Origin: a bacterium
GTDB taxonomy: Bacteria > Patescibacteriota > Minisyncoccia > Phycocordibacterales > GWA1-40-21
Direction of reading: 5' to 3'
Assembly: GCA_037131755.1 (NCBI GenBank)
Contig: JBAXQJ010000001.1
Coordinates: forward strand, 16,176-80,175
DNA length: 64,000 nt
Shown here: piece after piece, positions 3,986-51,302 of the stretch
How the letters are laid out: each line of letters starts with the position of its first letter
How positions within the stretch are numbered: the stretch's first letter is position 1
The notes under the pieces: model-generated
Databases searched by the model: none
The model's input: the letters and a program-made list of their open reading frames with translations, nothing else
What the model was told of the DNA's origin: nothing
Made by a program: the position numbers and the translations under genes

Positions 3986-4249
3986 ATGCCAATAACATCA
4001 TCAGCAAAAAAAGCACTCCGCGCCTCAAAAAATAAGAAGGTTTACAATACCCGACGAAAAGACGCAATGGGTGATACAATCAAGAATATCAAGAAATTAG
4101 TCGCCGAGAAGAAAGTCAAAGAAGCGGAGGCTATCATGTCCGCTGCCTACAAAGCCATCGACAAGGCTTCCAAGGCTCACGTGATCCACAAGAATACCGC
4201 TTCCCGAAAGAAAAGCCGATTGGCGAAACTGGTCAATAAAGCAAAATAA
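3986..4249 (+). CDS. rpsT: 30S ribosomal protein S20
   Basis: 87 aa, MPITSSAKKALRASKNKKVYNTRRKDAMGDTIKNIKK...SRKKSRLAKLVNKAK is typical bS20. Confidence 0.9.
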   Translation: MPITSSAKKALRASKNKKVYNTRRKDAMGDTIKNIKKLVAEKKVKEAEAIMSAAYKAIDKASKAHVIHKNTASRKKSRLAKLVNKAK

Positions 4250-4253
4250 TCAA

Positions 4254-4285
4254 AAACCACCTGCAAATTTGCAGGTGGTTTTTTG
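4254..4285 (+). terminator. Rho-independent terminator of rpsT
   Basis: ACCACCTGCAAATTTGCAGGTGGTTTTTTG hairpin plus T-tract immediately after the rpsT stop. Confidence 0.8.
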
Positions 4286-4410
4286 TTTTGGCAGGAGTAT
4301 CTCCCTCGCCTTAAAATTTCTCGTCAGAAATTTTAGGCTGGGCACCGGCTCACGGTTTTTTCTACTGAAAAAACATCGTTCCGCCGTTCGATTCCTGCAC
4401 GCAAGCAAAA

Positions 4411-4611
4411 TTGTTTGCTTGCTCAAGAGCACAAATTTTAAAAGCGCCACCTGGCGCTTTTAAAATTTGTGCCCATCGACCGAACGCCACTCGATTGTGG
4501 GAAATAATAACTGAAGCGGCAAAATGCCTAATTGTTCGGAATGATTTACCGGCTAATGATAGCACACCTGTATTAGAGATGCCGCGGGACCAAACGGGCT
4601 TGGCGGCATAA
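4411..4611 (+). CDS. Small upstream ORF (66 aa) of the HTH-XRE module; conserved at the protein level with small ORFs upstream of the two other XRE paralogs
   Basis: ...KICAHRPNATRLWEIITEAAKCLIVRNDLPANDSTPVLEMPRDQTGLAA aligns with CAHQRDAPRMLDLIISTMQDHLKKGPADS... (ORF 45220-45423, minus) and with an unlisted frame at about 46440-46570, minus. Substitutions between the latter two copies are mostly synonymous. Confidence 0.35.
   Translation: MFACSRAQILKAPPGAFKICAHRPNATRLWEIITEAAKCLIVRNDLPANDSTPVLEMPRDQTGLAA
4429..4472. promoter_or_regulatory. 44-nt perfect palindrome (21-bp arms, 2-nt spacer) GCACAAATTTTAAAAGCGCCA-CC-TGGCGCTTTTAAAATTTGTGC; candidate operator/hairpin of the XRE module
   Basis: Read directly from the sequence. 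A second copy with identical outer arms and a compensatorily changed inner stem is at 46565-46616. A smaller hairpin GCAAGCAAA-ATTG-TTTGCTTGC lies at 4401-4422. Confidence 0.5.
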
Positions 4612-4678
4612 ACTTGCCGCTTTCGGCAAGTCCGTCCACCTTTTGTTATTTTTACCAATCCCTTAATCTTTAATCATC

Positions 4679-4948
4679 ATGAACAATATCAAAAACAATT
4701 TGCGAGAATATCGCTTGAAAGCCGGACTTCGTCAGGTGGACGTCGCCAGTCTGATCGGCTTGGATTTTGCCGACCGTCTATCCCGCTGGGAAAATGGTCA
4801 GGCCATGCCGAATGTTGTCAACCTATTCCACCTTGCCGCGATCTATAAAGTTACGCCTAAAGATTTGTATCAGGATCTACGGCGAAATATTGATGAACAG
4901 GCTCAAGCTGCTCACTCAGATGCTCTTATACGACGAATGTCACACTGA
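4679..4948 (+). CDS. HTH-XRE family transcriptional regulator (paralog 1 of 3)
   Basis: MNNIKNNLREYRLKAGLRQVDVASLIGLDFADRLSRWENGQAMPNVVNLFHLAAIYKVTPKDLYQDL has the XRE/Cro-like HTH. Roughly 55-60% identical to the proteins at 44823-45149 and 46036-46293. Confidence 0.8.
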   Translation: MNNIKNNLREYRLKAGLRQVDVASLIGLDFADRLSRWENGQAMPNVVNLFHLAAIYKVTPKDLYQDLRRNIDEQAQAAHSDALIRRMSH

Positions 4949-40167: not shown

Positions 40168-40770
40168 ATGCATCTATTTGACGTTCAGTATCTAATTCAA
40201 TCGGTCGGTTTGTTGGGAATTTTTGCTATTGTTTTTGCTGAGTCCGGTCTGTTTTTCGCCTTCTTTTTGCCTGGCGACTCACTACTATTTACGGCGGGTT
40301 TTTTGGCCTCGCAAAATATGCTGCCAATATTTTGGTTAATCCTGGGTATTGCGATTTGCGCCGTTTTGGCCGGCTACGCCGGGTACTATTTCGGCCAATG
40401 GATCGGGCCAAAGATCTTTGTCAAAGAAGACTCTCTATTTTTCAGAAAGAAGTATTTGAATGAGGCGCACGCATTTTTTGAAAAGTATGGGAATAAGGCT
40501 GTGGTTTTGGCCAGGTTCATTCCTATCATCAGGACTTTTACACCAATTTTGGCCGGGGTAGGGCGGATGACTTTCGCGAATTTTTCCTTTTACAATATTT
40601 TTGGCGGTTCATTGTGGGCGGTTGGCATTACTTTGATTGGCTACTATTTAGGACATTTGATCCCTGGGGTACAGGATTATTTATTCCCAATCGCTCTTTT
40701 GATTATCTTTATTTCGGCCTTGCCGGGAGTGTATGAATATCTGTTGGAAAGGAAGAAAAGAAAGAGATAA
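40168..40770 (+). CDS. dedA: DedA/SNARE-associated family membrane protein
   Basis: FFLPGDSLLFTAGFLAS...KAVVLARFIPIIRTFTPILAGVGRM is the DedA signature. Confidence 0.8.
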   Translation: MHLFDVQYLIQSVGLLGIFAIVFAESGLFFAFFLPGDSLLFTAGFLASQNMLPIFWLILGIAICAVLAGYAGYYFGQWIGPKIFVKEDSLFFRKKYLNEAHAFFEKYGNKAVVLARFIPIIRTFTPILAGVGRMTFANFSFYNIFGGSLWAVGITLIGYYLGHLIPGVQDYLFPIALLIIFISALPGVYEYLLERKKRKR

Positions 40771-40814
40771 GGTTTGTCAAACAGATTACTTTTAAGTTTG
40801 TCTTTGAAACGAGT

Positions 40815-40902
40815 CACCGCCTTTTTAGAGACTAGCGAGCGCGACGGCGCGAGCTCGAGGAATTTTCTAGCAAGAAAATATCCGTGCTCTAAAAAGGCGG
40901 TG
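40815..40902 (+). ncRNA. Unclassified structured-RNA-like element, copy 1 (about 88 nt; 66-nt core identical to the copy at 47516-47605, closed by a different but still perfectly complementary outer stem)
   Basis: Core TTAGAGACTAGCGAGCGCGACGGCGCGAGCTCGAGGAATTTTCTAGCAAGAAAATATCCGTGCTCTAA. Outer stem CACCGCCTTTTTAGAG / CTCTAAAAAGGCGGTG. Intergenic between dedA and pilM. Confidence 0.45.
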
Positions 40903-40946
40903 GCGAGGGGTCTCTTTGTAAATAAACGTGACGGTATGGTATAATT

Positions 40947-42032
40947 ATGGGGAATAAAATTATGTCCCCCAAAAATAAGTATTCAAAATTTTTTGTACCG
41001 CCGGATTTTCTGGAAATGCCTTCCGTGGCAATTGAAATGTCTGAAAAAGGCGTCCGGTACTTGTCGGTAAAGAAAACAGATAAGGGTCTGTTGCCAGCCA
41101 AGACGGGTTTCATTCCGGTTTCTAAAGGGGTTATCCGTTTCGGTGAGGTTGTCAAAAAAAATGAGATAGTAAAAATCTTGGACAAGATAAAAAAAACCAC
41201 CGGCACGACTTTTGCCCGGGTTTCATTGCCGGAAGAAAAGACCTATATATTCAAGGTTCGTATCCCTAAGGTGGAAGAAAAGGAGATACGGCAGGTTTTG
41301 GAATTCAAGATCGAGGAAAATGTCCCACTTTCGGCGGCTGAGGCGATCTTTGATTACGAGATCATTTCTCACCAGAAAAAGAGCAGCCATATGGATCTTA
41401 TTGTCTCTGCCGTCTCAAGCAAGACGATCGATGAAATATCAGCCGTCTTGGCTGATGCTGGTTTGCAACCGGTCTGTTTCGGTCTGGATTCCAAAAATAC
41501 CGCCCGGTCGGTCGTGAAAGAAAATAACGAGCAGACTTTGGTTGTAGCGGACATAAAAGACAACCAGATTGTCTTGTCGCTGGTACTTGATGGATTAGTT
41601 TGGCAAACCTCGACTGTAAATTTTGGCGCTTCGACTTTTACCGATGCCTTGAAAAAATATTATGATATTTCCTTGGAAGAGGCAGAAAAGCTGAAGCAAG
41701 ACCGGTTATATACCGACAGCAAGGAAAGCATGGAGATTTTTTCTTATCTCATAAATACCGTCTCGGCCATTAAAGACGAGATATTCAAATTTATCACCTA
41801 TTGCAACGAAAGGGAGGACGTCAAAGACAAAGTCGATAAGGTAATCTTGTGCGGCAAGGATTCGGCTATCGTGGGCATGCAAAAATATCTGGAATTGAAC
41901 CTGAACCTGGATGTGGACATTGCCAACATCTGGATAAACAATTTTTCCCTGGCCGACTATGTCCCGACAATCGGGGCAGTGGAGTCTCTGGATTATGCCA
42001 ATGTTAACGGTCTTAACTTGTACGAATTATGA
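40947..42032 (+). CDS. pilM: Type IV pilus assembly protein PilM-like (actin-like ATPase fold)
   Basis: 361 aa. Followed by overlapping PilN- and PilO-like single-TM genes. Divergent but PilM-like in length and context; direct motif evidence is weak. Confidence 0.55.
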   Translation: MGNKIMSPKNKYSKFFVPPDFLEMPSVAIEMSEKGVRYLSVKKTDKGLLPAKTGFIPVSKGVIRFGEVVKKNEIVKILDKIKKTTGTTFARVSLPEEKTYIFKVRIPKVEEKEIRQVLEFKIEENVPLSAAEAIFDYEIISHQKKSSHMDLIVSAVSSKTIDEISAVLADAGLQPVCFGLDSKNTARSVVKENNEQTLVVADIKDNQIVLSLVLDGLVWQTSTVNFGASTFTDALKKYYDISLEEAEKLKQDRLYTDSKESMEIFSYLINTVSAIKDEIFKFITYCNEREDVKDKVDKVILCGKDSAIVGMQKYLELNLNLDVDIANIWINNFSLADYVPTIGAVESLDYANVNGLNLYEL

Positions 42033-42577
42033 GCGCAAATTTATTAACTGAAAAACAGAAAATTTTTGTCAAAAACGAATTCCGCCTGCGCCTAGCGGTG
42101 ACAGTGGTCTTTTTGGTGTTTTTGACTTCGGTCAACTATCTATCATACCTGATCCCTTATTATATTTCCGTCGTTAAAAAGGACCGGTTGGTAGCTGAAC
42201 AGTTTGCCGAAGTGATAACGGTGGAAAACAAGGAAAATAGCGGCAGCAGCATCACGCAAACTGTGAGGAGGACAAATGACATGATGAAATTGGTTGAAAT
42301 TTATGGCCAGCCGGCTTTGGTGATTTCGGAACAGATAGATAAAATCATCAGCAATAAGAATTCCGGAATCGTCATTAACAAGATATCCTCAAATTATCTC
42401 CAGCCGACAGACATGCAGATTAATATTTCCGGTCGGGCAAAAACCAGGGACAATCTGACCGTTTTTCTCCAGACGCTCAAAAGCAAGGCCGCCTTTTATG
42501 ATGTGAAATACCCAGTTTCCGATTTCTTGAAAAGCAACGATATTGATTTTACGATAAATATCCGGGCAAAAAAATAA
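42029..42577 (+). CDS. pilN: PilN-like fimbrial assembly protein (single N-terminal TM)
   Basis: 182 aa. The start overlaps the pilM stop by 4 nt. N-terminal TM LAVTVVFLVFLTSVNYLSYLI. Confidence 0.5.
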   Translation: MSANLLTEKQKIFVKNEFRLRLAVTVVFLVFLTSVNYLSYLIPYYISVVKKDRLVAEQFAEVITVENKENSGSSITQTVRRTNDMMKLVEIYGQPALVISEQIDKIISNKNSGIVINKISSNYLQPTDMQINISGRAKTRDNLTVFLQTLKSKAAFYDVKYPVSDFLKSNDIDFTINIRAKK

Positions 42578-42580
42578 GCT

Positions 42581-43141
42581 ATGAAAAAATACTCCACCAA
42601 AATAATATTTTCCGTTGCCGTCGCCATTCTTTCGATATCAGTCATCGGTAGTGCCGTATTTAGCTACTTGCTCGTCGATAAGATAAACAACATAAATGAC
42701 AAGATCAAGCAGATGGATCTTTCAACCCAAGAAAGGAACAAGCAGGGAGCGCAAAAGATGTCCGTCGTTGACACGGAAGCCGATCGGGCGAAATTAGAAA
42801 GCTATTTTGTTTCTGCCGACGGGGCGGTGGATTTCATCAAATACCTGGAGAATTTATCGGTCGAAGTCGGGGTTAAGGCCAACATTCAAAATATTAATTT
42901 TCAACCCTTGCGCGACACAGCTTATGCCAACACAGCCGAATATATCAGCTTGAATCTGTCAGTTGAAGGAACCTGGGCCAAGGTTTACCGTTATGTATTA
43001 CTACTGGAAAAGCTGCCTTTTGTGAGCGAGGTTGGCAATGTTGATATGACTGAAGTGACACAAACCGATGAGAAAAACAAAACCAAATCATTTTGGACAG
43101 CGACGATTTCCTTGAAGGTGATTAAGTTAAAAAATATTTAA
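42581..43141 (+). CDS. pilO: PilO-like pilus assembly protein (single N-terminal TM)
   Basis: 186 aa, N-terminal TM IIFSVAVAILSISVIGSAVFSYLLV, operonic with pilM/pilN. Confidence 0.45.
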   Translation: MKKYSTKIIFSVAVAILSISVIGSAVFSYLLVDKINNINDKIKQMDLSTQERNKQGAQKMSVVDTEADRAKLESYFVSADGAVDFIKYLENLSVEVGVKANIQNINFQPLRDTAYANTAEYISLNLSVEGTWAKVYRYVLLLEKLPFVSEVGNVDMTEVTQTDEKNKTKSFWTATISLKVIKLKNI

Positions 43142-43480
43142 ATGAAAAACTTAGATTTGAATAAAATACTCACTATGGATTTGTTTGGCAAAAAAAGCGT
43201 GAAGGCGGCCAAACCTTTTAGCCTCAGTAATTTTTGGCGAGTAACGATGATCACGTTTACTTTGGTGAACCTGGCTATTTCTGTCTTTGCCTGGCATGTT
43301 TATGTCGGCAATGACATTGGCGGTGGACTGGTCAGTCAGCCAGTGGTGGAAGGGGACACTTATGTGAAGGTGGTGGATAAAAACAAGCTCACCAAAGATC
43401 TAAAAATATATTCTGATGTAAGCAAAGCTTTTGATAATTTAAAAAATCAAGACATAAAGATCGTTGACCCGTCGCTGTAA
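43142..43480 (+). CDS. Hypothetical membrane-anchored protein (possible PilP-like), last gene of the pil operon
   Basis: 112 aa. Its start abuts the PilO-like stop. TM VTMITFTLVNLAISVFAWHVYV. Confidence 0.4.
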   Translation: MKNLDLNKILTMDLFGKKSVKAAKPFSLSNFWRVTMITFTLVNLAISVFAWHVYVGNDIGGGLVSQPVVEGDTYVKVVDKNKLTKDLKIYSDVSKAFDNLKNQDIKIVDPSL

Positions 43481-43506
43481 AACTGTTATAGTCTCACGGC
43501 TCATTT

Positions 43507-43578
43507 GCCCCCGTAGTTCAATGGATAGAACAGAGCTCTTCTAAGGCTTTGATGTAGGTTCGATTCCTACCGAGGGCA
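43507..43578 (+). tRNA. tRNA-Arg (anticodon TCT), 72 nt
   Basis: Acceptor GCCCCCG/CGAGGGC (one C.A mismatch at 5:68); D-arm GTTC-AATGGATA-GAAC; anticodon stem GAGCT/GGCTT (two G.U pairs) with loop CTTCTAA; T-arm GTAGG-TTCGATT-CCTAC; discriminator A. Confidence 0.75.
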
Positions 43579-43738
43579 CAAAATGGTGACTTCCCACAAG
43601 TCACACACCACGTTCAGAAATAGGGATATTTTGACACTGTCCGCATAGCCAAACAGCGTTTTTTATTGCTCTATATCTCTTTGCCAAAAGACGGCCTCAC
43701 TGAGCCAAATAATTGGTTCGAGTCTTGTGACCATGGTG

Positions 43739-44536
43739 TTATTTGGGGAAATTAGCAAAAGCCAAGTCATTTGAAAGATGCTCGATTGAAAAAGCATAAC
43801 CAATACCGACGTTTGCAGAACGAAGAATCTCTTCCCCCAATTTCTTCATCTGTATTTGACTACACATAAAGGCTGCTATCGGATCAACACCAGCCAATAC
43901 CACACCTCCTATGCTAGGTTTGACGGCTTCAATATTTTTATCAAACACCTCCATAAATTGGGTAAACAGCTTTGTAAGGCCAGTTGCTTTACGGGTGATG
44001 ATACCTAGAACATTACCAGTATCCGGATCTATCAATGGCCCACCAGAATTGCTCTGGTTGATACTCGCGTCGAGTTGAATTATTGAAACGGTTCCGGTTT
44101 TGTAGAAGGACGAGATCGTCCCTTTATGGCAAACAAGATTATTGTGTTCAAGTGGATAGCCAAGAAACAGAATGTCATCACCGACGGCTTTGTCTTTTGG
44201 GTTTCCGATCTCAAAGTTAAACCTGTTCATGGTCTTAATCACAGGAATATTGAACACCGCATAATCACAAGATTCTTCATAAGATCCAGTTACTAAATAC
44301 TTCATGAATTCGTCGTAGGAATACCTCAGTTCATCCTTTTTACTAGCAGGATCTTCATTGTCAAAACGAAGCAGGATATCTATGCCCGTTGAACCATATG
44401 GGACCTTGATTACGTGATTGCAGGTAATCAACAGCTGTTTGGAGAGGAACCCCGAACCCGAACCAATCTTTTCTTGGCCACGCATATAGTTAATATGAAC
44501 AATCCCAGATCTGACTTTTTTAATTATTTCTCGCAT
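43739..44536 (-). CDS. Trypsin-like (S1/Trypsin_2-type) serine protease, no signal peptide
   Basis: Catalytic triad context: LITCNHVI (His), CDYAVFNI (Asp), INQSNSGGPLID (Ser in GxSGGP). 265 aa. Downstream of, and co-oriented with, XRE paralog 2. Confidence 0.7.
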   Translation of the reverse strand: MREIIKKVRSGIVHINYMRGQEKIGSGSGFLSKQLLITCNHVIKVPYGSTGIDILLRFDNEDPASKKDELRYSYDEFMKYLVTGSYEESCDYAVFNIPVIKTMNRFNFEIGNPKDKAVGDDILFLGYPLEHNNLVCHKGTISSFYKTGTVSIIQLDASINQSNSGGPLIDPDTGNVLGIITRKATGLTKLFTQFMEVFDKNIEAVKPSIGGVVLAGVDPIAAFMCSQIQMKKLGEEILRSANVGIGYAFSIEHLSNDLAFANFPK

Positions 44537-44822
44537 ATATCTCCCCTTGAAGGTGGTGTCAGTATATCACACCTATCACTAAATAGTCAGTTTAAGCTCC
44601 CATGGCAACAGCACTGGATATTACTAATCCCTCTGTTTGTTATAAATTCCTGTGTGCTAACTTTAGGATATTATGAAAAACAAAACACCAACTCTAAGGG
44701 AGGTTTTTCAGACCTTTCGGATGAGAAATTAGAAGAAGTGGAAGAACGACTGGAAGAGCATGTGAGGGTGGCGATGGAGACTTACGAACGGATCAGTCAT
44801 GACCCGGTCGAATACAAAGGAT

Positions 44823-45149
44823 TCAAAGCTCTTCTGGTACAAGAGAAGGAACGGAAGCAATCGGCTTCACAGTACCATTGCCCGGATTGTCGGAAGCAGT
44901 TTGCTTTGTCCGGGTATTCTCTTCCAACTGAGACTCAATCATCTGCCACAACTCCGGGTACAGGTCCCGAGGCGACACCTTGTAAATGATCGCCAGACGA
45001 AACAGGTTGATAATATTCGGGACAGCATGACCGGCTTCCCATTTGGAGAGGCGGTCCGTGCAGTCGAGTTTCAAAGCTTCAGCCACTTCTCGTTGATATA
45101 GTCCGACGCGATTGCGATACAAGCGAAGGTTGTTTGTTGTTTTGTTCAT
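44823..45149 (-). CDS. HTH-XRE family transcriptional regulator (paralog 2 of 3)
   Basis: MNKTTNNLRLYRNRVGLYQREVAEALKLDCTDRLSKWEAGHAVPNIINLFRLAIIYKVSPRDLYPEL. The start is taken at the internal Met that matches the paralog N-termini. Confidence 0.75.
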   Translation of the reverse strand: MNKTTNNLRLYRNRVGLYQREVAEALKLDCTDRLSKWEAGHAVPNIINLFRLAIIYKVSPRDLYPELWQMIESQLEENTRTKQTASDNPGNGTVKPIASVPSLVPEEL

Positions 45150-45219
45150 GATGATTAGGTTAGCGCGATGGTTAAAAGTCACAAAGGAGGGCAAATGTGT
45201 CACAAGTGGCACGTCCCCA

Positions 45220-45423
45220 TTATGGCGCTTCAGTGGAGTGAGGCCGTGGTTTTTCTTGGGATGATATGTTAGAATTCACACATGCTGAATCAGCAGGACC
45301 CTTCTTTAGGTGATCCTGCATGGTGGAGATTATTAAATCTAACATTCGGGGTGCGTCCCGTTGATGGGCACAACATGTGGTCCACACCAAGCGATGAAGC
45401 CAGGCCGGCTCGGCTCCTTGCAT
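45220..45423 (-). CDS. Small upstream ORF of XRE paralog 2 (conserved with 4411-4611 and with an unlisted frame in the 46348-46640 leader)
   Basis: ...CAHQRDAPRMLDLIISTMQDHLKKGPADSACVNSNISSQEKPRPHSTEAP versus the paralog-3 leader translation CAHQRDTPRMLDMIISTLQDHLKKGSADSTHLNNNMSPQEKPQGWLDDAA. Most nucleotide differences between them are synonymous. Confidence 0.35.
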   Translation of the reverse strand: MQGAEPAWLHRLVWTTCCAHQRDAPRMLDLIISTMQDHLKKGPADSACVNSNISSQEKPRPHSTEAP

Positions 45424-45548
45424 GAAAAACGGTCTGGGTGTATATTACTGGTATGCCTGTGGGCGCAAGCCCCTTTTCGGCTAAGGATTACCTAAGCTGA
45501 AGGCAGGCATAACAAAACAGCCCTCCACTCGGAGAGCTTTTTTGTTGC

Positions 45549-46010
45549 CTAGAAATCCTCAATGCCATCGTCATAAAGCTTCTGATTGTTGAATTTCTTG
45601 TGCGGCATGACGCTCCAAAAGATGATCTTGCCGTCACCAACCCGTTTCAGGATCACGACGATCTTGCGCAGATAGTCTTGGCCGATGATGGCGTGGAAAC
45701 CCCAGTATTCAACATTCTTGGTTTTGAAGAAACCATCCTTGCCGACACTACCGGTTTTCTCAAGACTTTTCCGGTATTCCTGAAGAGTCCCGGCCTGCTT
45801 GATAACTTCCAGGGCTTTGGGTAGCAGGGTGAGCTTCAGAACTTGCTCATCCACGTTTCGTAGCATTCGGTTGCCTTTGTACTGAAGATGATTAAAGCCG
45901 TCAGAAGTCAAAATGATGTCACCTTGAAAATACGGGCAACGAATTTGTCCTTGAAGCGGATATGCTCGTTTTGCCTTTTCCAACGCTCTTTGTAATTTGT
46001 CTTGCTCCAT
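45549..46010 (-). CDS. Hypothetical protein (153 aa), downstream partner of XRE paralog 3
   Basis: 25 nt downstream of the XRE gene on the same strand. No recognisable motif. Confidence 0.45.
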   Translation of the reverse strand: MEQDKLQRALEKAKRAYPLQGQIRCPYFQGDIILTSDGFNHLQYKGNRMLRNVDEQVLKLTLLPKALEVIKQAGTLQEYRKSLEKTGSVGKDGFFKTKNVEYWGFHAIIGQDYLRKIVVILKRVGDGKIIFWSVMPHKKFNNQKLYDDGIEDF

Positions 46011-46035
46011 GAGAGTAGAGACATTCTACCATGAC

Positions 46036-46293
46036 TTATTCTTTCGGAGAAATTTGAGCGTTGGTAAGTTTTGATTCAATCGTCTGGCGCAAGTCTTGAT
46101 ACAGATCTTGAGGCGAAACTTTATAGATTGAAGCCAAGCGAAACAGATTGACCACGTTCGGCATGGCGACTCCATTTTCCCAACGAGATAAGCGATCAGC
46201 AAAATCCAGGCCGAGTTGCCGGGCTACATCTACCTGACGCAAACCAACTTTGAGACGATATGCTTTGAGGTTGTTGTGTGTAATATTGTTCAT
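46036..46293 (-). CDS. HTH-XRE family transcriptional regulator (paralog 3 of 3)
   Basis: MNNITHNNLKAYRLKVGLRQVDVARQLGLDFADRLSRWENGVAMPNVVNLFRLASIYKVSPQDLYQDL is near-identical in the HTH region to paralog 1. The start is at the internal Met. Confidence 0.8.
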   Translation of the reverse strand: MNNITHNNLKAYRLKVGLRQVDVARQLGLDFADRLSRWENGVAMPNVVNLFRLASIYKVSPQDLYQDLRQTIESKLTNAQISPKE

Positions 46294-46564
46294 AATAATA
46301 ATTTTATGAGAAATGATAAATGGTGCAAAGGCGGGTAAACGTATCACTTGCGATACACCACTATTAGATTAGAGCAATTGGTGAAAGTCACAAAGGAGGG
46401 CAAACGTGCCGGAAGAGGCACGTTCCCATTAGGCAGCATCATCAAGCCAACCCTGTGGTTTTTCTTGAGGTGACATGTTATTATTCAAATGAGTCGAATC
46501 AGCAGACCCCTTCTTCAGGTGATCCTGAAGCGTTGAGATTATCATATCCAACATTCGAGGTGTA

Positions 46565-46616
46565 TCCCGTTGATGGGCACAAATTTTAAAACACTTTCAA
46601 CAGGAAGTGTTTTAAA
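46565..46616. promoter_or_regulatory. 52-nt palindrome GGGCACAAATTTTAAAACACTT-(8 nt)-AAGTGTTTTAAAATTTGTGCCC; second copy of the XRE-module palindrome
   Basis: The outer 16-17 nt of each arm match the 4429-4472 palindrome. The inner arms differ (GCGCCA/TGGCGC versus CACTT/AAGTG) but remain complementary. Confidence 0.5.
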
Positions 46617-46699
46617 ATTTGTGCCCGAGAGTAAACAAATGATTCTGTTGGGATATTTAAATTGATTTTTTGCGATTTTAGTGTAGTATCTTCATATAA

Positions 46700-46772
46700 G
46701 GGCGGTTAGCTCAGTTGGTAGAGCGTTTCATTTACACTGAAAGGGTCACAGGTCCGAGTCCTGTACCGCCCA
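46700..46772 (+). tRNA. tRNA-Val (anticodon TAC), 73 nt
   Basis: Acceptor GGGCGGT/ACCGCCC; D-arm AGCTCAGTTGGTAGAGC; anticodon stem TTTCA/TGAAA with loop TTTACAC; T-arm with GGTCCGAGTCC; discriminator A. Confidence 0.85.
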
Positions 46773-46773
46773 C

Positions 46774-47487
46774 ATGGAAGTTCAAATTCTCTATGAAGAT
46801 AAAAACCTTTTGGTAATCAACAAGCCAGCCGGTCTTGTCGTGCATACGGACGGTCGGACATCTGAACCGACGGTCATCGACTGGATAAAAGAAAAATACC
46901 CCAAGAATGAGAAAGTGGGGGAACCTTTGAAAATTGTCACTGGCGAGACTATTAAGCGATACGGAGTAGTACACAGAATCGATCGCGAAACCTCGGGAGT
47001 CTTGCTGATCGCTAAAAATCAGGACGCCTACGATTTCTTAAAAAAACAATTCCTAAAGCGGGATATCGAAAAGACCTACCACGCAATCGTCTATGGCGAT
47101 TTGCGTTACGACGAGGGATTGATCAATCTGCCAATCGGCCGCCACAAAAACGACTTTAGACGCTGGTCAGCTGACAAAAAAATACGCGGGGAGGCGAGAG
47201 AAGCCCTGACTTATTATAAGGTACTGGGCCGGAAAAAAGACTATACTTTGGTTGAAGCCAACCCGCAGACTGGGCGGACTCACCAGCTGAGAGTCCATTT
47301 TAGCGCTCAAGGACACCCGATTGTCGGAGACAAGCTTTATGCTCCAGGAAAGAAAACGATTGAGGGCCTGGATAGGCTGGCTCTGCACGCTTATTCCATA
47401 GAATTTGAATCACCGGACAAAAAGATCCACAAGATTATCGCGCCGTACCCGGCTGATTTCAAGGAGGCGATTGGTATTTTTAGATAG
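46774..47487 (+). CDS. RluA-family pseudouridine synthase (RluD/RluC-like; no S4 domain)
   Basis: LLVINKPAGLVVHTD..., HRIDRETSGVLLIAKN (catalytic Asp in the HRLD motif) and ...THQLRVHFSAQGHPIVGDKLY. It starts 2 nt after tRNA-Val. Confidence 0.8.
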   Translation: MEVQILYEDKNLLVINKPAGLVVHTDGRTSEPTVIDWIKEKYPKNEKVGEPLKIVTGETIKRYGVVHRIDRETSGVLLIAKNQDAYDFLKKQFLKRDIEKTYHAIVYGDLRYDEGLINLPIGRHKNDFRRWSADKKIRGEAREALTYYKVLGRKKDYTLVEANPQTGRTHQLRVHFSAQGHPIVGDKLYAPGKKTIEGLDRLALHAYSIEFESPDKKIHKIIAPYPADFKEAIGIFR

Positions 47488-47515
47488 GACTTGAGTCATC
47501 TAAAGATAGAGCGAA

Positions 47516-47605
47516 CCTTTACTACTTTAGAGACTAGCGAGCGCGACGGCGCGAACTCGAGGAATTTTCTAGCAAGAAAATATCCGTGCTCTAAAGTAGT
47601 AAAGG
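47516..47605 (+). ncRNA. Unclassified structured-RNA-like element, copy 2 (same 66-nt core as 40815-40902 with one G>A change; different but self-complementary outer stem)
   Basis: Outer stem CCTTTACTACTTTAGAG / CTCTAAAGTAGTAAAGG. Intergenic between the rluA-family gene and rplS. Confidence 0.45.
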
Positions 47606-47670
47606 TGAGAGCTCGATTTGCCAAAAAAGGAGAGTTGTGCTAGATTAACTCGCATAATTGATTAAATAAT

Positions 47671-48066
47671 ATGAAGATTTCAACCGTAAACATCGAAGAG
47701 AGAAAGAACCTGGATTTGCGATCAAACGATACGATAAAGGTTCACCAGAAAATCAAGGAAGGCGATAAAACCAGAACCCAGGTTTTTGAAGGTTTGGTTA
47801 TTGCTGTAAAGCATGGCAAGGAAGCGGGAGGTACTTTTACCGTTCGAAAGGTTGTCGATGGCGTCGGGGTGGAAAGAATTTTCCCTCTTTATGCTCCATC
47901 TATCGAGAAAATTGAAATCGTGAGAAGAGCTCAGGCTCGACGGGCGAAATTGTATTACATCCGAGACAAAGCGGCCAAGGAAATCCGAAAGAAAATGCGA
48001 AAGATGATCTCGATCAAGAGTCCAGAGAAAGTCGAAGAAGCAAAAACCGAAGAGGTCAAAGCTTAA
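47671..48066 (+). CDS. rplS: 50S ribosomal protein L19
   Basis: [63 protein letters not shown] is typical bL19. Confidence 0.9.
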
Positions 48067-48077
48067 ATAAAAATTAA

Positions 48078-48120
48078 ATCAGCCGGGTTTCGCGAAGCGA
48101 AACCCGGCTGATTGTTTATT
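48078..48120 (+). terminator. Rho-independent terminator after rplS
   Basis: TCAGCCGGGTTTCGCGAAGCGAAACCCGGCTGATTGTTTATTT: 14-bp stem plus T-rich tail. Confidence 0.8.
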
Positions 48121-48162: not shown

Positions 48163-48246
48163 GCACGGGTGGCGAAATTGGTAGACGCACTACCTTGAGG
48201 TGGTAGCGCCCGCAAGGGCATGGGAGTTCAAATCTCCCCTCGTGCA
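48163..48246 (+). tRNA. tRNA-Leu (anticodon GAG), 84 nt, long variable arm
   Basis: Acceptor GCACGGG/CTCGTGC (one G.U); D-arm GCG-AAATTGGTAGA-CGC; anticodon stem CTACC/GGTAG with loop TTGAGGT; variable arm CGCCCGCAAGGGCAT; T-arm GGGAG-TTCAAAT-CTCCC; discriminator A. Confidence 0.85.
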
Positions 48247-48379
48247 CAGACAAAAATAAGTCCGATGCGAATACCTGAAGCATCGGGCTATTTTTGACGC
48301 ACAAAGGGAGACTTGAAAGCCGGAGTGCGACGGCACGAGGCGGGGTCGCGAGTTTTGTCAGTAGACAAAAACCGGTGAC

Positions 48380-48401
48380 CAAATCTCCCTTCGTGCACAA
48401 G
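48380..48401 (+). repeat. Direct repeat of the tRNA-Leu 3' end (CCAAATCTCCCTTCGTGCACA versus tRNA TCAAATCTCCCCTCGTGCACA), about 135 nt downstream of the tRNA
   Basis: Seen by eye. It has the look of an att-site remnant from an integration/excision event at the tRNA 3' end. Confidence 0.5.
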
Positions 48402-48412
48402 TGAGGATAAAG

Positions 48413-49141
48413 TTACTTAAAATTTAAATCAGACCTAAAGCCAAGTTCCGATCTGTCAAACTTGGTCGGTCGGTCAAGTCGACCCCAATAGGCAAACTGG
48501 CTTTTTCTCTGAAAGAAATTTTTCATCGGGTGAGAATGTCTCAGACTAAAACCGGGATCTAGTATTATTTTGTACCCGCTATTTATTGCCCAGGCTGCCC
48601 ATTCGCCATCTTCACCACCCATCTCATACCTTTCATCGAAAGGATGTTTTTCCCAAAGAGATTTCCTGAGGGCGCAATTGGTAGCGCTCATGATGCCTTT
48701 TGTATTGGAAACCAATCTTTTCCCAAATATTAATCCCTTTAAATACCAAAAGGAGTAAGTAATAAATTCAACTAAATGAGCTCCATTTCTTGGTAATTGA
48801 GTACCGTAAAAACCAGCAACATTTTTATCTTGAAAATTTTCTACCACTTTTTGTAGCCACTTGTCTGATACAGGTAGGGCATGGCCGACAGTCAGGACGA
48901 CATATTCGCCAGTGGTATTTTTGACCCCGAGGTTCATCGATTTCGGATACGAAAACTCGTTTCTTGGCAGGGTGATCACTTTGGCGCCAAAGTCCAGGGC
49001 CAACTCTTTTGTCCCGTCGGTCGATTCATTGTCTACCACGATAATTTCAAAAGGCTCGGAGCATTTTTGGCTACGAAGGGAGATCAGGAGCTTTTCTAGA
49101 CTAGCTCTTTCGTTTATTGTTCTTATCACAACCGATATCAT
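48413..49141 (-). CDS. Family 2 glycosyltransferase
   Basis: MISVVIRTINERASLEKLLISLRSQ...FEIIVVDNESTDGT...PKSMNLGVKNTTGEYVVL has the GT2 DXD/Rossmann signature. The start is taken at the internal Met (the 279-aa track ORF has an implausible N-terminus). Confidence 0.75.
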   Translation of the reverse strand: MISVVIRTINERASLEKLLISLRSQKCSEPFEIIVVDNESTDGTKELALDFGAKVITLPRNEFSYPKSMNLGVKNTTGEYVVLTVGHALPVSDKWLQKVVENFQDKNVAGFYGTQLPRNGAHLVEFITYSFWYLKGLIFGKRLVSNTKGIMSATNCALRKSLWEKHPFDERYEMGGEDGEWAAWAINSGYKIILDPGFSLRHSHPMKNFFQRKSQFAYWGRLDRPTKFDRSELGFRSDLNFK

Positions 49142-49188
49142 CCCCAAACTATATACTATCTCTAAAATACTGTATACTATTTTGTATG

Positions 49189-49746
49189 TTATACACCGGA
49201 AAAGGGGATGATGGTCAAACGACTTTGTTCCATTGCGAACAAAGGTTTTCAAAAAGCTCGATTGTGGCCGAAGCCCTCGGTTCTTTGGATGAACTCAACT
49301 CTTTTTTGGGTGTCGTAAAAGCAAAATTGGCCGAAAGAAATATTACTTTATATTCCGTGGGGCCGGAAAGAGCGGCTGATATCATACAGGAGATGCAGGA
49401 GAATTTATTTATCATCCAGGCGGAGGTGGCCGGAGTGGAAAAAACAGTTAGTGAAGAAAAAATAAAGGAAGTGGAGGACCTGATTGCCGGTATTGGAAAA
49501 GAAATTCCACCAATTAACTCTTTTGTTATCCCAGGAGTATCCATTGAATCGGCGGAAATAGATTTTGCTCGGACCTTGGCCCGTAAGGTGGAGAGGAGAG
49601 TGGTCGCTGTAAATACCGAGGGCTTTATTAAAGTTTCAGCCAACACCTTGGCTTATTTGAATCGTCTTTCGAGCTTACTATTTGCTCTGGCTAGACTTTC
49701 TGCCCATAAAAGTGGCATTCAAGAAAATAGTCCAAGTTATAAGTAG
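49189..49746 (+). CDS. ATP:cob(I)alamin adenosyltransferase, PduO/MMAB type
   Basis: MLYTGKGDDGQTTLF (the TGxGDxGxTSL motif) and helical-bundle conservation. The start is at the internal Met of the 209-aa ORF. Confidence 0.7.
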   Translation, partial: LYTGKGDDGQTTLFHCEQRFSKSSIVAEALGSLDELNSFLGVVKAKLAERNITLYSVGPERAADIIQEMQENLFIIQAEVAGVEKTVSEEKIKEVEDLIAGIGKEIPPINSFVIPGVSIESAEIDFARTLARKVERRVVAVNTEGFIKVSANTLAYLNRLSSLLFALARLSAHKSGIQENSPSYK

Positions 49747-50789: not shown

Positions 50790-50858
50790 ATGGTGGTTAT
50801 GGTGTAATAGCAGCACAAGGGTTTGTGGAACCCTTAGATCCGGAGCATAACCGGATAG

Positions 50859-50909
50859 CCACCCCAAATTGAAAAAACGGCGTTATGCCGTTTTTTCAAT
50901 TTGGGGTGG
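50859..50909. terminator. 51-nt near-perfect palindrome (23-bp arms) containing a canonical intrinsic-terminator core (AAAAAACGGC-GTTAT-GCCGTTTTTT), followed by a second 8-bp hairpin at 50913-50938
   Basis: CCACCCCAAATTGAAAAAACGGCGTTATGCCGTTTTTTCAATTTGGGGTGG lies immediately after the tandem HNH genes. Confidence 0.55.
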
Positions 50910-51302
50910 CTAAACGAGTGCTATTAAGCACTCGTGTTCGGGAGTTGAAGACCTTGAGTATATCGCATGGAGCGCAGCGAGTACGATACGAAAGGTGTAC
51001 TGTTCCTGTAAGGAAAAACTGCCCGATAGTCAGGATCTGGAGGTTTGGATTGTCTTTGTATCATAATGTAGACAACCATGATATAATGCTAGTACTATAT
51101 TCTGTCATCTATTTTGTGAGATTACATATATTTTAGGTCGAACCAATTTACCAAAAATAAATAAAGATAAAACCATAAATTAATTTACTACATACCCAAA
51201 GCGACAACCTATATCTTAGAGGCCTTAGAAGCTCAGACATATCTTGTCTGAGTACTTTTTATTAAAATAAATAATAAATACTAAAATGAAAAAATAAGTA
51301 TA

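Follow-up and report, generated by a model that had tools for sequence, protein, structure and literature searches.

Dispersed intergenic sequences that fold are known from several bacterial groups. In the REP/REPIN elements of proteobacteria, the conserved part is the stem, formed by the REP sequence and its GTAG/CGTC tag, while the loop varies freely. The elements bcr1 (Bacillus cereus group), BOX and RUP (pneumococcus), ERIC, and Correia/NEMIS are dispersed intergenic elements of ~100 to 150 nucleotides (nt) that fold as RNA with compensatory changes and influence mRNA ends or stability; they are conserved over their whole length, with inverted repeats at their ends and duplicated target sites (e.g., TA). 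The Patescibacteria, or Candidate Phyla Radiation (CPR), hold a large share of bacterial diversity in minimal genomes and are almost uncultured, and to our knowledge very few lineage-specific RNAs have been described from them. Here we analyze a folded intergenic element that occurs in two near-identical copies and one divergent copy in a 64,000-nt stretch of a Patescibacteria contig (JBAXQJ010000001.1; the whole stretch is hereafter “the window”). These copies are members of a previously undescribed multi-copy structured family restricted to the Parcubacteria group of Patescibacteria.

Architecture, covariation, and range of the family

Copy 1 (88 nt, 40815 to 40902) and copy 2 (90 nt, 47516 to 47605) both lie on the + strand, where a preliminary description of the window had placed them. 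Both are intergenic, as that description held: copy 1 lies between the open reading frames (ORFs) 40168 to 40770 (VTT/DedA) and 40947 to 42032 (pilM), copy 2 between the ORFs 46774 to 47487 (pseudouridine synthase, rluA) and 47671 to 48066 (rplS), and the Pfam domains of the flanking genes in syntenic relatives (VTT/DedA, PilM_2, PseudoU_synth_2, and L19) agree. The terminal arms, 16 nt long in copy 1 and 17 nt in copy 2, are perfect reverse complements within each copy and are unrelated between copies except for a junction-proximal TTTAGAG common to both; the reported outer stems of different sequence and perfect pairing are thus real. So is the common core, but not its length: it had been given as 66 nt with a quoted string of 68 nt, and the longest block common to both copies is 70 nt (40824 to 40893 versus 47526 to 47595), identical at 69 of 70 positions, with G40853 of copy 1 against A47555 of copy 2 as the sole mismatch. 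Two core probes (31 to 33 nt) matched these two window sites only, and 0 of 100 shuffles gave a match. For both copies, the predicted fold is a long stem capped by a three-way junction (z = −6.1 and −7.0).

Near-identical cores with unrelated stems in two copies would fit a mobile core equally well, and the covariation by which the preliminary description argued for a functional RNA over a MITE (miniature inverted-repeat transposable element) could not have been shown by two copies alone. That argument gains its footing from homologues. When a 25-base pattern taken from the core was run against a set with one genome for each GTDB species, it hit 44 loci, spread over 25 metagenome-assembled genomes (MAGs), all of them Patescibacteria and several with multiple loci. 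The host lineages are mostly of the Parcubacteria group (Vogel-, Taylor-, and Kaiserbacteria, Paceibacterota, and Parcubacteria, plus generically labeled MAGs), Vogel- and Taylorbacteria being separate candidate phyla inside NCBI’s Parcubacteria group. A second pattern found 38 metagenome loci; with 12 N instead of 11, it catches only variants with a 5-nt hairpin A loop and does not gauge the abundance of the commoner 4-nt-loop form. The density is about one copy per 5 to 20 kb, with up to 3 copies in 12.9 kb (contig L057), a measurable share of otherwise streamlined genomes.

In an alignment of 72 distinct copies (A4), in which pairs were counted by helix, the closing helix P1 showed double-sided changes at 20 of 20 tested pairs. 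Hairpin B, a 10-bp A/U-rich stem with an AGCA loop and a bulged A, showed them at 6 of 10 pairs, with 99.4% of cells paired. Hairpin A consists of 3 bp, a GA/GA loop, 4 bp, and a GAC(N)G loop, and in this register (AGC-GA-GNNN-GAC(N)G-NNNC-GA-GCU) 98.6% of cells were paired and 3 of 7 pairs had double-sided changes. The covariation score was 0.554 as observed and 0.160 when shuffled (0 of 500 shuffles reached the observed value), while slid registers scored 0.08 to 0.17. The stems found in hairpin A were GCGC/GCGC, GGGC/GCCC, GGCC/GGCC, GGCU/AGCC, GCCU/AGGC, GCUU/AAGC, and GUUU/AAAU, to which divergent copies added GUCC/GGAC, GUGC/GCAC, and AGCU/AGCU, with outer pairs UGC/GCA, CUC/GAG, GCC/GGC, and GAC/GUC. 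These variants fix the register: the tandem G·A loop of hairpin A is symmetric, and a C-G pair (40836/40853 in copy 1, 47538/47555 in copy 2) is broken by the G>A change of copy 2. The hairpin proposed earlier, GAG-CGCG-ACGG-CGCG-AG-CUC, was out of register, with 12 to 13 of the 72 homologues unpaired at each of four pairs, and its placement of the G>A change in a bulge falls with it. Compensatory change across the 72 copies thus shows a three-way-junction fold maintained by selection, and with arms that vary and a tip that is conserved, the element is not a classical MITE; to this extent the earlier case stands.

The corrected structure is also larger than the one first reported: the whole folded element measures ~100 to 130 nt. 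P1 gains an outer extension of two pairs beyond the arms first noted, which makes it 18 bp in both window copies, and it is exactly 18 bp in 21 of the 28 copies with recognizable GA/GA flanks. Its 7 junction-proximal pairs (UUUUNNGAG/CUCNNAAAA) keep their sequence, while that of the outer ~11 bp is free. P1 is bounded by a basal tandem G·A motif (5′ (A)GAGCGA, 3′ GAGCG(R)) with sheared-type mismatches. A second class of base reads 5′ GUUGA and 3′ GAGAAA and adds an outer helix, P0, which is an optional helix outside the basal G·A internal loop; in a third class, P1 continues as a perfect 27- to 43-bp stem. The class-1 3′ flank GAGCG-N-CCTTTA(Y)T occurs in non-orthologous loci (e.g., L072, L082, L069, L087, L013, and L008), where its TTA is the reverse complement of the TAA stop codon of the converging gene, and several class-1 5′ flanks read CTTTTA-GAGCGA. 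The recurrent CCTTTA and CTTTTA flanks may belong to the element itself, reflect a preferred target, or follow from local composition at gene ends.

In copy 1, the full unit of basal G·A motif, P1, and three-way junction runs from 40809 to 40908 (+), as traced from the P1 base and its GA/GA flanks. The 18-nt 5′ arm of P1 (40813 to 40830) pairs with the 3′ arm (40887 to 40904), and the flanking CGA (40810 to 40812) and GAG (40905 to 40907) form the tandem G·A plus a C-G pair. Hairpin A (AGC-GA-GCGC-GACG-GCGC-GA-GCU, with a tandem G·A internal loop and GACG loop) occupies 40834 to 40855, its register set by covariation and by divergent copies; hairpin B (GGAAUUUUCU-AGCA-AGAAAAU(A)UCC, with its AGCA loop and bulged A) occupies 40859 to 40883 and is likewise supported by covariation. 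In copy 2, the full unit spans 47506 to 47614 (+), with an 18-bp P1 (47515 to 47532/47589 to 47606), hairpin A at 47536 to 47557 (in which A47555 breaks the C-G pair), hairpin B at 47561 to 47585, and a basal motif formed by GAGCGA (47509 to 47514) and GAGAGCUC (47607 to 47614), all on the + strand. R2, a covariance model built on the corrected structure and searched against 1.27 Mb, scored 108.8 bits over 40808 to 40910 for copy 1 and 102.9 bits for copy 2. The ORFs that overlap the copies (40774 to 40944 and 47491 to 47643) were rejected as coding: some homologues have one extra base in the hairpin A loop or insertions of 30 to 58 nt in the hairpin B loop, together with compensatory stem changes, and loop indels of such lengths, which are normal for structured RNA, exclude coding on the evidence of the alignment.

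Three lines of evidence bear on which strand folds. P1 held 78 G·U cells versus 23 A·C cells (31 versus 9 among in-register copies, 61 versus 22 by distinct sequence context, and 14 versus 4 in the subset with the neighboring gene on the opposite strand). On the complement, the conserved G·A mismatches would read U·C or C·U. Of 64 copies, 58 were predicted to be more stable as the pattern strand, on which the core pattern reads (the + strand in the window); the means were −46.5 versus −39.9 kcal/mol, a difference of 6.6, in a comparison that is partly non-independent since the core is common to all copies. Together the G·U excess, the strand-specific G·A motifs, and the stability difference show that the pattern strand is under structural selection and is the strand that folds. 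RNA is the simplest reading of this bias, folded DNA being formally possible, and we infer that the active molecule is RNA.

Known families do not account for the element. The preliminary description recognized no known RNA family in it, and it matches none in Rfam 15: only tRNAs passed the gathering threshold in the window, and none of the three copies had a relevant hit even at E ≤ 10. Pairing is maintained across the 72 distinct copies, and R2 added a third, divergent copy in the window. Neither ARAGORN nor the tRNA covariance model called a tRNA or transfer-messenger RNA overlapping any copy, and no description of the family was found in the literature on RNA motifs and repeats of CPR and Parcubacteria. 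The element is a good structured-RNA candidate, conserved about like a tRNA segment across several candidate phyla.

Placement, turnover, and possible roles

Among the 61 copies with a callable 3′ neighbor, 44 (72%) face a converging gene on the 3′ side, whose stop codon begins or ends close by, the median distance from the P1 base being ~11 nt; the 5′ side is variable, with distances of about 20 to 500 nt, and some 5′ spacers measure only 18 to 37 nt. The window’s arrangement, sense between co-directional genes, is a minority one (8 copies with both neighbors on the same strand versus 22 with both on the opposite strand). Most copies in other genomes are antisense to the neighboring gene, and the element is neither the 5′ leader nor the simple 3′ element that had been considered for it. 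Orientation is mixed inside single 5- to 12-kb contigs (L057, L073, L092, and L037), which makes a replication-strand rule based on single-stranded DNA (ssDNA) unlikely; it tracks the neighboring gene and not the replication strand. Among the proteins encoded near the 44 loci, no cluster was common to more than 3 loci, and the largest spanned 3 syntenic ones.

We tentatively read the element, at a probability of roughly 0.45, as a new structured RNA module that is recognized by a conserved factor and acts at the borders of transcription units, on transcripts that run in the pattern direction. The folded module would be rigid, with the junction cap and the G·A base held one 18-bp helix apart and both recognized by the factor, which would end, process, or protect such transcripts; a bare long hairpin would serve the opposite strand as well. 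The 3′ base would sit tight against what must stay untranscribed, namely, a converging gene or, in the window, the next promoter, and the 5′ side would be whatever happens to lie upstream. Copies 1 and 2 would thereby each have a stop codon on one side and the next promoter on the other (dedA|pilM and rluA|rplS). Promoter-like sites indeed follow both: TTGTAA-18-TATAAT, TG-extended and with a −10 region conserved in relatives, lies just 3′ of copy 1 and before pilM (40916 to 40945, +), and TTGCCA-17-TAGATT lies just 3′ of copy 2 and before rplS (47618 to 47646, +), near which a ATTTGCCAAAAAA conserved in relatives marks the 3′ edge of extra DNA. New sites would arise and vanish only occasionally. 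A plain terminator that substitutes for the element at one orthologous gene end (L038) was counted in favor of such a boundary role, as were the sites retained across genera and the type-2 copy flanked by two tRNAs (both described below).

Several results weigh against it. A sigma-70-like promoter at a fixed upstream distance was not enriched relative to the opposite-orientation control; a weak upstream clustering of TANNNT was seen, picked post hoc. No U-tract followed the hairpin in either orientation (mean of 2.3 T in the next 10 nt), the tails after the hairpin were not T-enriched relative to the other side, and a terminator scan of the window called nothing at copies 1 and 2; without U-tract or terminator call, the element is not a canonical intrinsic terminator. 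In the commonest setting, with both neighbors on the opposite strand, it is not evident what would supply pattern-strand transcripts. No partner protein, and no transposase or integrase, recurs near copies at the 44 loci. Syntenic relatives, finally, have no hairpin at either window site and seem to manage without one, so that no single site can be said to require the element. The boundary role is thus weakened by the want of a promoter and a U-tract and by the dispensability of single sites.

These relatives (contigs L045 to L048, with L19 84% identical) keep the gene order, and their spacers measure 87 nt (dedA-pilM) and 67 nt (rluA-rplS) versus about 176 and 183 nt in the window. About 115 to 130 nt are missing at the empty sites, and sequence similarity resumes at the downstream promoters; with no hairpin left in the spacers, the whole unit, not just the core, is the indel. 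The other assemblies of the window’s own species all carry the copies, two of their contigs ending at copy 2. Elsewhere, the element follows orthologous genes directly in L002 and L029 (69% identity), with different P1 sequences and diverged cores, where L038 has the plain terminator hairpin, and it follows orthologues that are 74% identical in L008 (Taylorbacteria) and L021. Some sites are thus old and kept across genera with different P1 sequences, and others are gained and lost like a dispersed repeat.

Such turnover lends a second explanation some weight, and we consider it possible though clearly less probable than a boundary role: a nonautonomous, REPIN- or MITE-like mobile repeat, on whose folded single strand (DNA or RNA) an enzyme encoded elsewhere in the genome would act, so that the fold is conserved for mobilization and not for a host function. 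It would account for a multi-copy, strictly intergenic element packed as densely as in L057, for sites that are empty in relatives with no leftover hairpin, for window cores that are nearly identical under unrelated P1 helices, for assemblies that break or turn chimeric at the element, and for the scar-like 19/20 direct repeat of a tRNA 3′ end that flanks copy 3 (see below). It sits poorly with the lack of a transposase, integrase, or other recurrent gene near the copies and of any match to the core pattern in viral contigs, phage records, or plasmid collections. No target-site duplication or long direct repeat was found at main-type copies: direct repeats around them do not exceed the control level, and short flank look-alikes (GTCTTTG/GTCTCTTTG at copy 1 and CTTTTA/CCTTTA elsewhere) are inconsistent among copies. 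Transposases normally recognize ends, whereas here the arms are unconserved; orthologous sites are kept across genera with compensatory drift; and the mixed, gene-tracking orientation speaks against mobilization as lagging-strand ssDNA in the manner of IS200/IS605 or RAYT.

The copies might instead be independently transcribed, trans-acting small RNAs, such as the RNA part of an abundant ribonucleoprotein or a protein sponge, each tail-to-tail with its neighbor gene. That the pattern strand is folded even where both neighbors lie on the other strand, that 5′ spacing is variable and the 3′ side tight, as for a gene with an upstream promoter, and that the core is conserved about like tRNA or rRNA segments across candidate phyla all point this way. 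We nevertheless hold it to be unlikely, given the absence of a positioned upstream promoter, 5′ spacers that can be as short as 18 nt, and the missing terminator U-tract; tens of paralogues with a free P1 would be unusual for a housekeeping RNA, and P1 sequences, considered as guides, had no other match in the 64-kb window.

A broader version of the boundary role, to which we give rather low odds, is a lineage-specific transcript-boundary signal that partly replaces intrinsic terminators in Parcubacteria and spreads without terminal repeats or target duplications, of which the tRNA-linked relatives described below may show the seeding. It is very improbable that the elements are ordinary palindromic terminators with a short repeat inserted in the loop, their stems being preexisting host hairpins. 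The window does have many long perfect hairpins used as terminators, and a plain terminator does replace the element at one orthologous gene end, but P1 is fixed at 18 bp with 7 conserved junction-proximal pairs, a strand-specific G·A motif is conserved outside it, and the empty sites of relatives are free of hairpins; for the window sites, insertion of the core into a preexisting terminator hairpin is rejected on the last two grounds. Least probable of all is a riboswitch or cis-regulatory leader of the downstream gene, which the aptamer-like architecture (three-way junction, variable closing P1, and conserved junction bases) would suit but which is at odds with unrelated neighbor genes sharing no protein cluster beyond 3 loci, with the 72% of copies that face a converging gene, and with window copies that lie upstream of the next genes’ promoters, outside their leaders.

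tRNA-linked members, assembly effects, and other repeats

A third copy in the window (48295 to 48401, +; R2 score of 33.8 bits, E = 2e−5 over 1.27 Mb) is a divergent, type-2 member. Its P1 is GCACAAAGGGAGA/UCUCCCUUCGUGC, its hairpin A is GCC-GGA-GUGC-GACG-GCAC-GA-GGC, and its hairpin B is longer; on one side of it is a tRNA, on the other a converging gene's stop codon. The tRNA is tRNA-Leu(gag) (48163 to 48246, +), and its 3′ end (48229 to 48248) is repeated at 19 of 20 positions, 151 nt downstream, in the 3′ arm of copy 3 (CAAATCTCCCTTCGTGCACA, 48380 to 48399). The 5′ arm is an inverted copy of the same tRNA 3′ end, and the stem thus mimics the acceptor/T-stem of the adjacent tRNA; the arrangement resembles the scar of an integration or a minihelix of tRNA type. 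The positions of type-2 copies are downstream of tRNA genes, in the same orientation: in the window’s relative L045 (8928 to 9016, −), the element follows tRNA-Val and a terminator-like hairpin, and in the Paceibacterota MAG locus L009 (1600 to 1709, −), tRNA-Val and tRNA-Arg flank it in the same orientation, and its 5′ arm is likewise complementary to the tRNA 3′ end. Between these two tRNAs, transcription of the pattern strand is very likely.

Compared with L045 (10490 to 10580), the window (48247 to 49300) has about 940 extra nt after tRNA-Leu, comprising a terminator hairpin, the type-2 element, and a minus-strand glycosyltransferase gene; in relatives, Cob_adeno_trans directly follows tRNA-Leu. 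A segment of L045 (8760 to 8900, −) is tRNA-like (GGGTGGTGA...CCCTCACCGCCCAC), with a 7-bp acceptor stem and a tRNA-Val-like 3′ end and no ARAGORN call. It contains a hairpin-A-like motif and may be a disrupted or intron-containing tRNA.

The element disturbs metagenome assembly. Two assemblies of the window’s species (L052 and L053) break 170 to 265 nt upstream of rplS, at copy 2, and in L091, the 5′ arm of the L067 locus is joined to the 3′ arm of the L081 locus inside the common core, an apparent chimeric assembly. The element accounts for such contig breaks and chimeras in Parcubacteria assemblies, and the covariance model is usable for annotation.

Other repeats lie nearby. Window positions 45154 to 45373 and 46363 to 46582 are a direct pair in an ~80% identical repeat family, of which 4673 to 4893 and 46076 to 46296 form an inverted pair; perfect palindromes with TTTTAAAATTTGTGCCC at 4406 to 4472 and 46575 to 46647, near small helix-turn-helix (HTH) genes, are of the same family, which may be a duplicated mobile module. 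Very long perfect hairpins with 17- to 26-bp arms stand at gene ends (1505 to 1555, 48077 to 48113, and 50856 to 50912), the second of them, flanked by A and T runs, scoring as a bidirectional terminator after rplS; the ordinary terminators of this genome are unusually long. Beside main-type copies in other genomes, tandem small hairpin repeats of the form GGATYCC...GGRATGACAAT(G/A)CGGATT were observed (L011 at ~1200 to 1260 and 4240 to 4310; downstream in L015, L020, L031, L035, and L042). They are a further uncharacterized family, and long intergenic regions (e.g., L011, 3895 to 4402) are filled with such structures.

Comparison with known systems

The genome cost of the element suggests either an unusual selfish design or general gene-expression machinery. 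If it marks transcript ends, it would aid operon annotation in thousands of MAGs and point to an RNA-binding factor.

Several described systems were considered and set aside. A likeness to the hammerhead ribozyme is limited to GA/GA flanking a stem: the element reads CUAGCGA...GAG and not the CUGANGA/GAA core, and no Rfam hammerhead matched at E ≤ 10. Integron attC sites have the opposite arrangement, with conserved R″/R′ boxes where the arms are free here and the center conserved, and no cassette arrays were found. An IS200/IS605-type ssDNA element (PATE) does not agree with orientation mixed within 5- to 12-kb contigs. TIGR arrays do not fit, with no array and no Tas gene at the element, and the element is too small for a tRNA group I intron.

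The closer comparisons are more instructive. Orphan structured RNA motifs of the Rfam type are, like this family, recognized by their covariation and have conserved junctions as well as conserved loops that take insertions of variable length; the present family differs in its absence from Rfam 15, its very high copy number, and its mixed orientation to genes. Intrinsic (bidirectional) terminators occupy the same kinds of position (directly 3′ of a stop codon, ahead of the next promoter, or between genes that converge), but here there is no U-tract, the stem is far longer, and the ~60-nt conserved junction cap has no role in the canonical mechanism. In MITEs, conserved terminal inverted repeats would be expected, whereas the arms here differ completely between copies and the center is conserved. 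The terminal repeats and target duplications that bcr1, BOX, ERIC, and Correia carry along with their whole-length conservation were not found in the Parcubacteria family, which has a near-invariant core across several candidate phyla. REP/REPIN elements resemble it as short, multi-copy extragenic hairpins that have no gene of their own, often lie at gene 3′ ends or between converging genes, and are inherited vertically over long times with occasional gain and loss. They differ in that no conserved palindromic REP unit of 20 to 40 nt is present here, no RAYT was seen within 64 kb of genome, orientation tracks genes, and the tip is a three-way junction with covarying subhelices, conserved where the stem is free in sequence and fixed in length. 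The conservation pattern of this family is therefore inverted relative to that of REPINs, of bcr1, BOX, ERIC, and Correia, and of terminators: what is conserved is the tip, whereas the stem varies in sequence at a fixed length.

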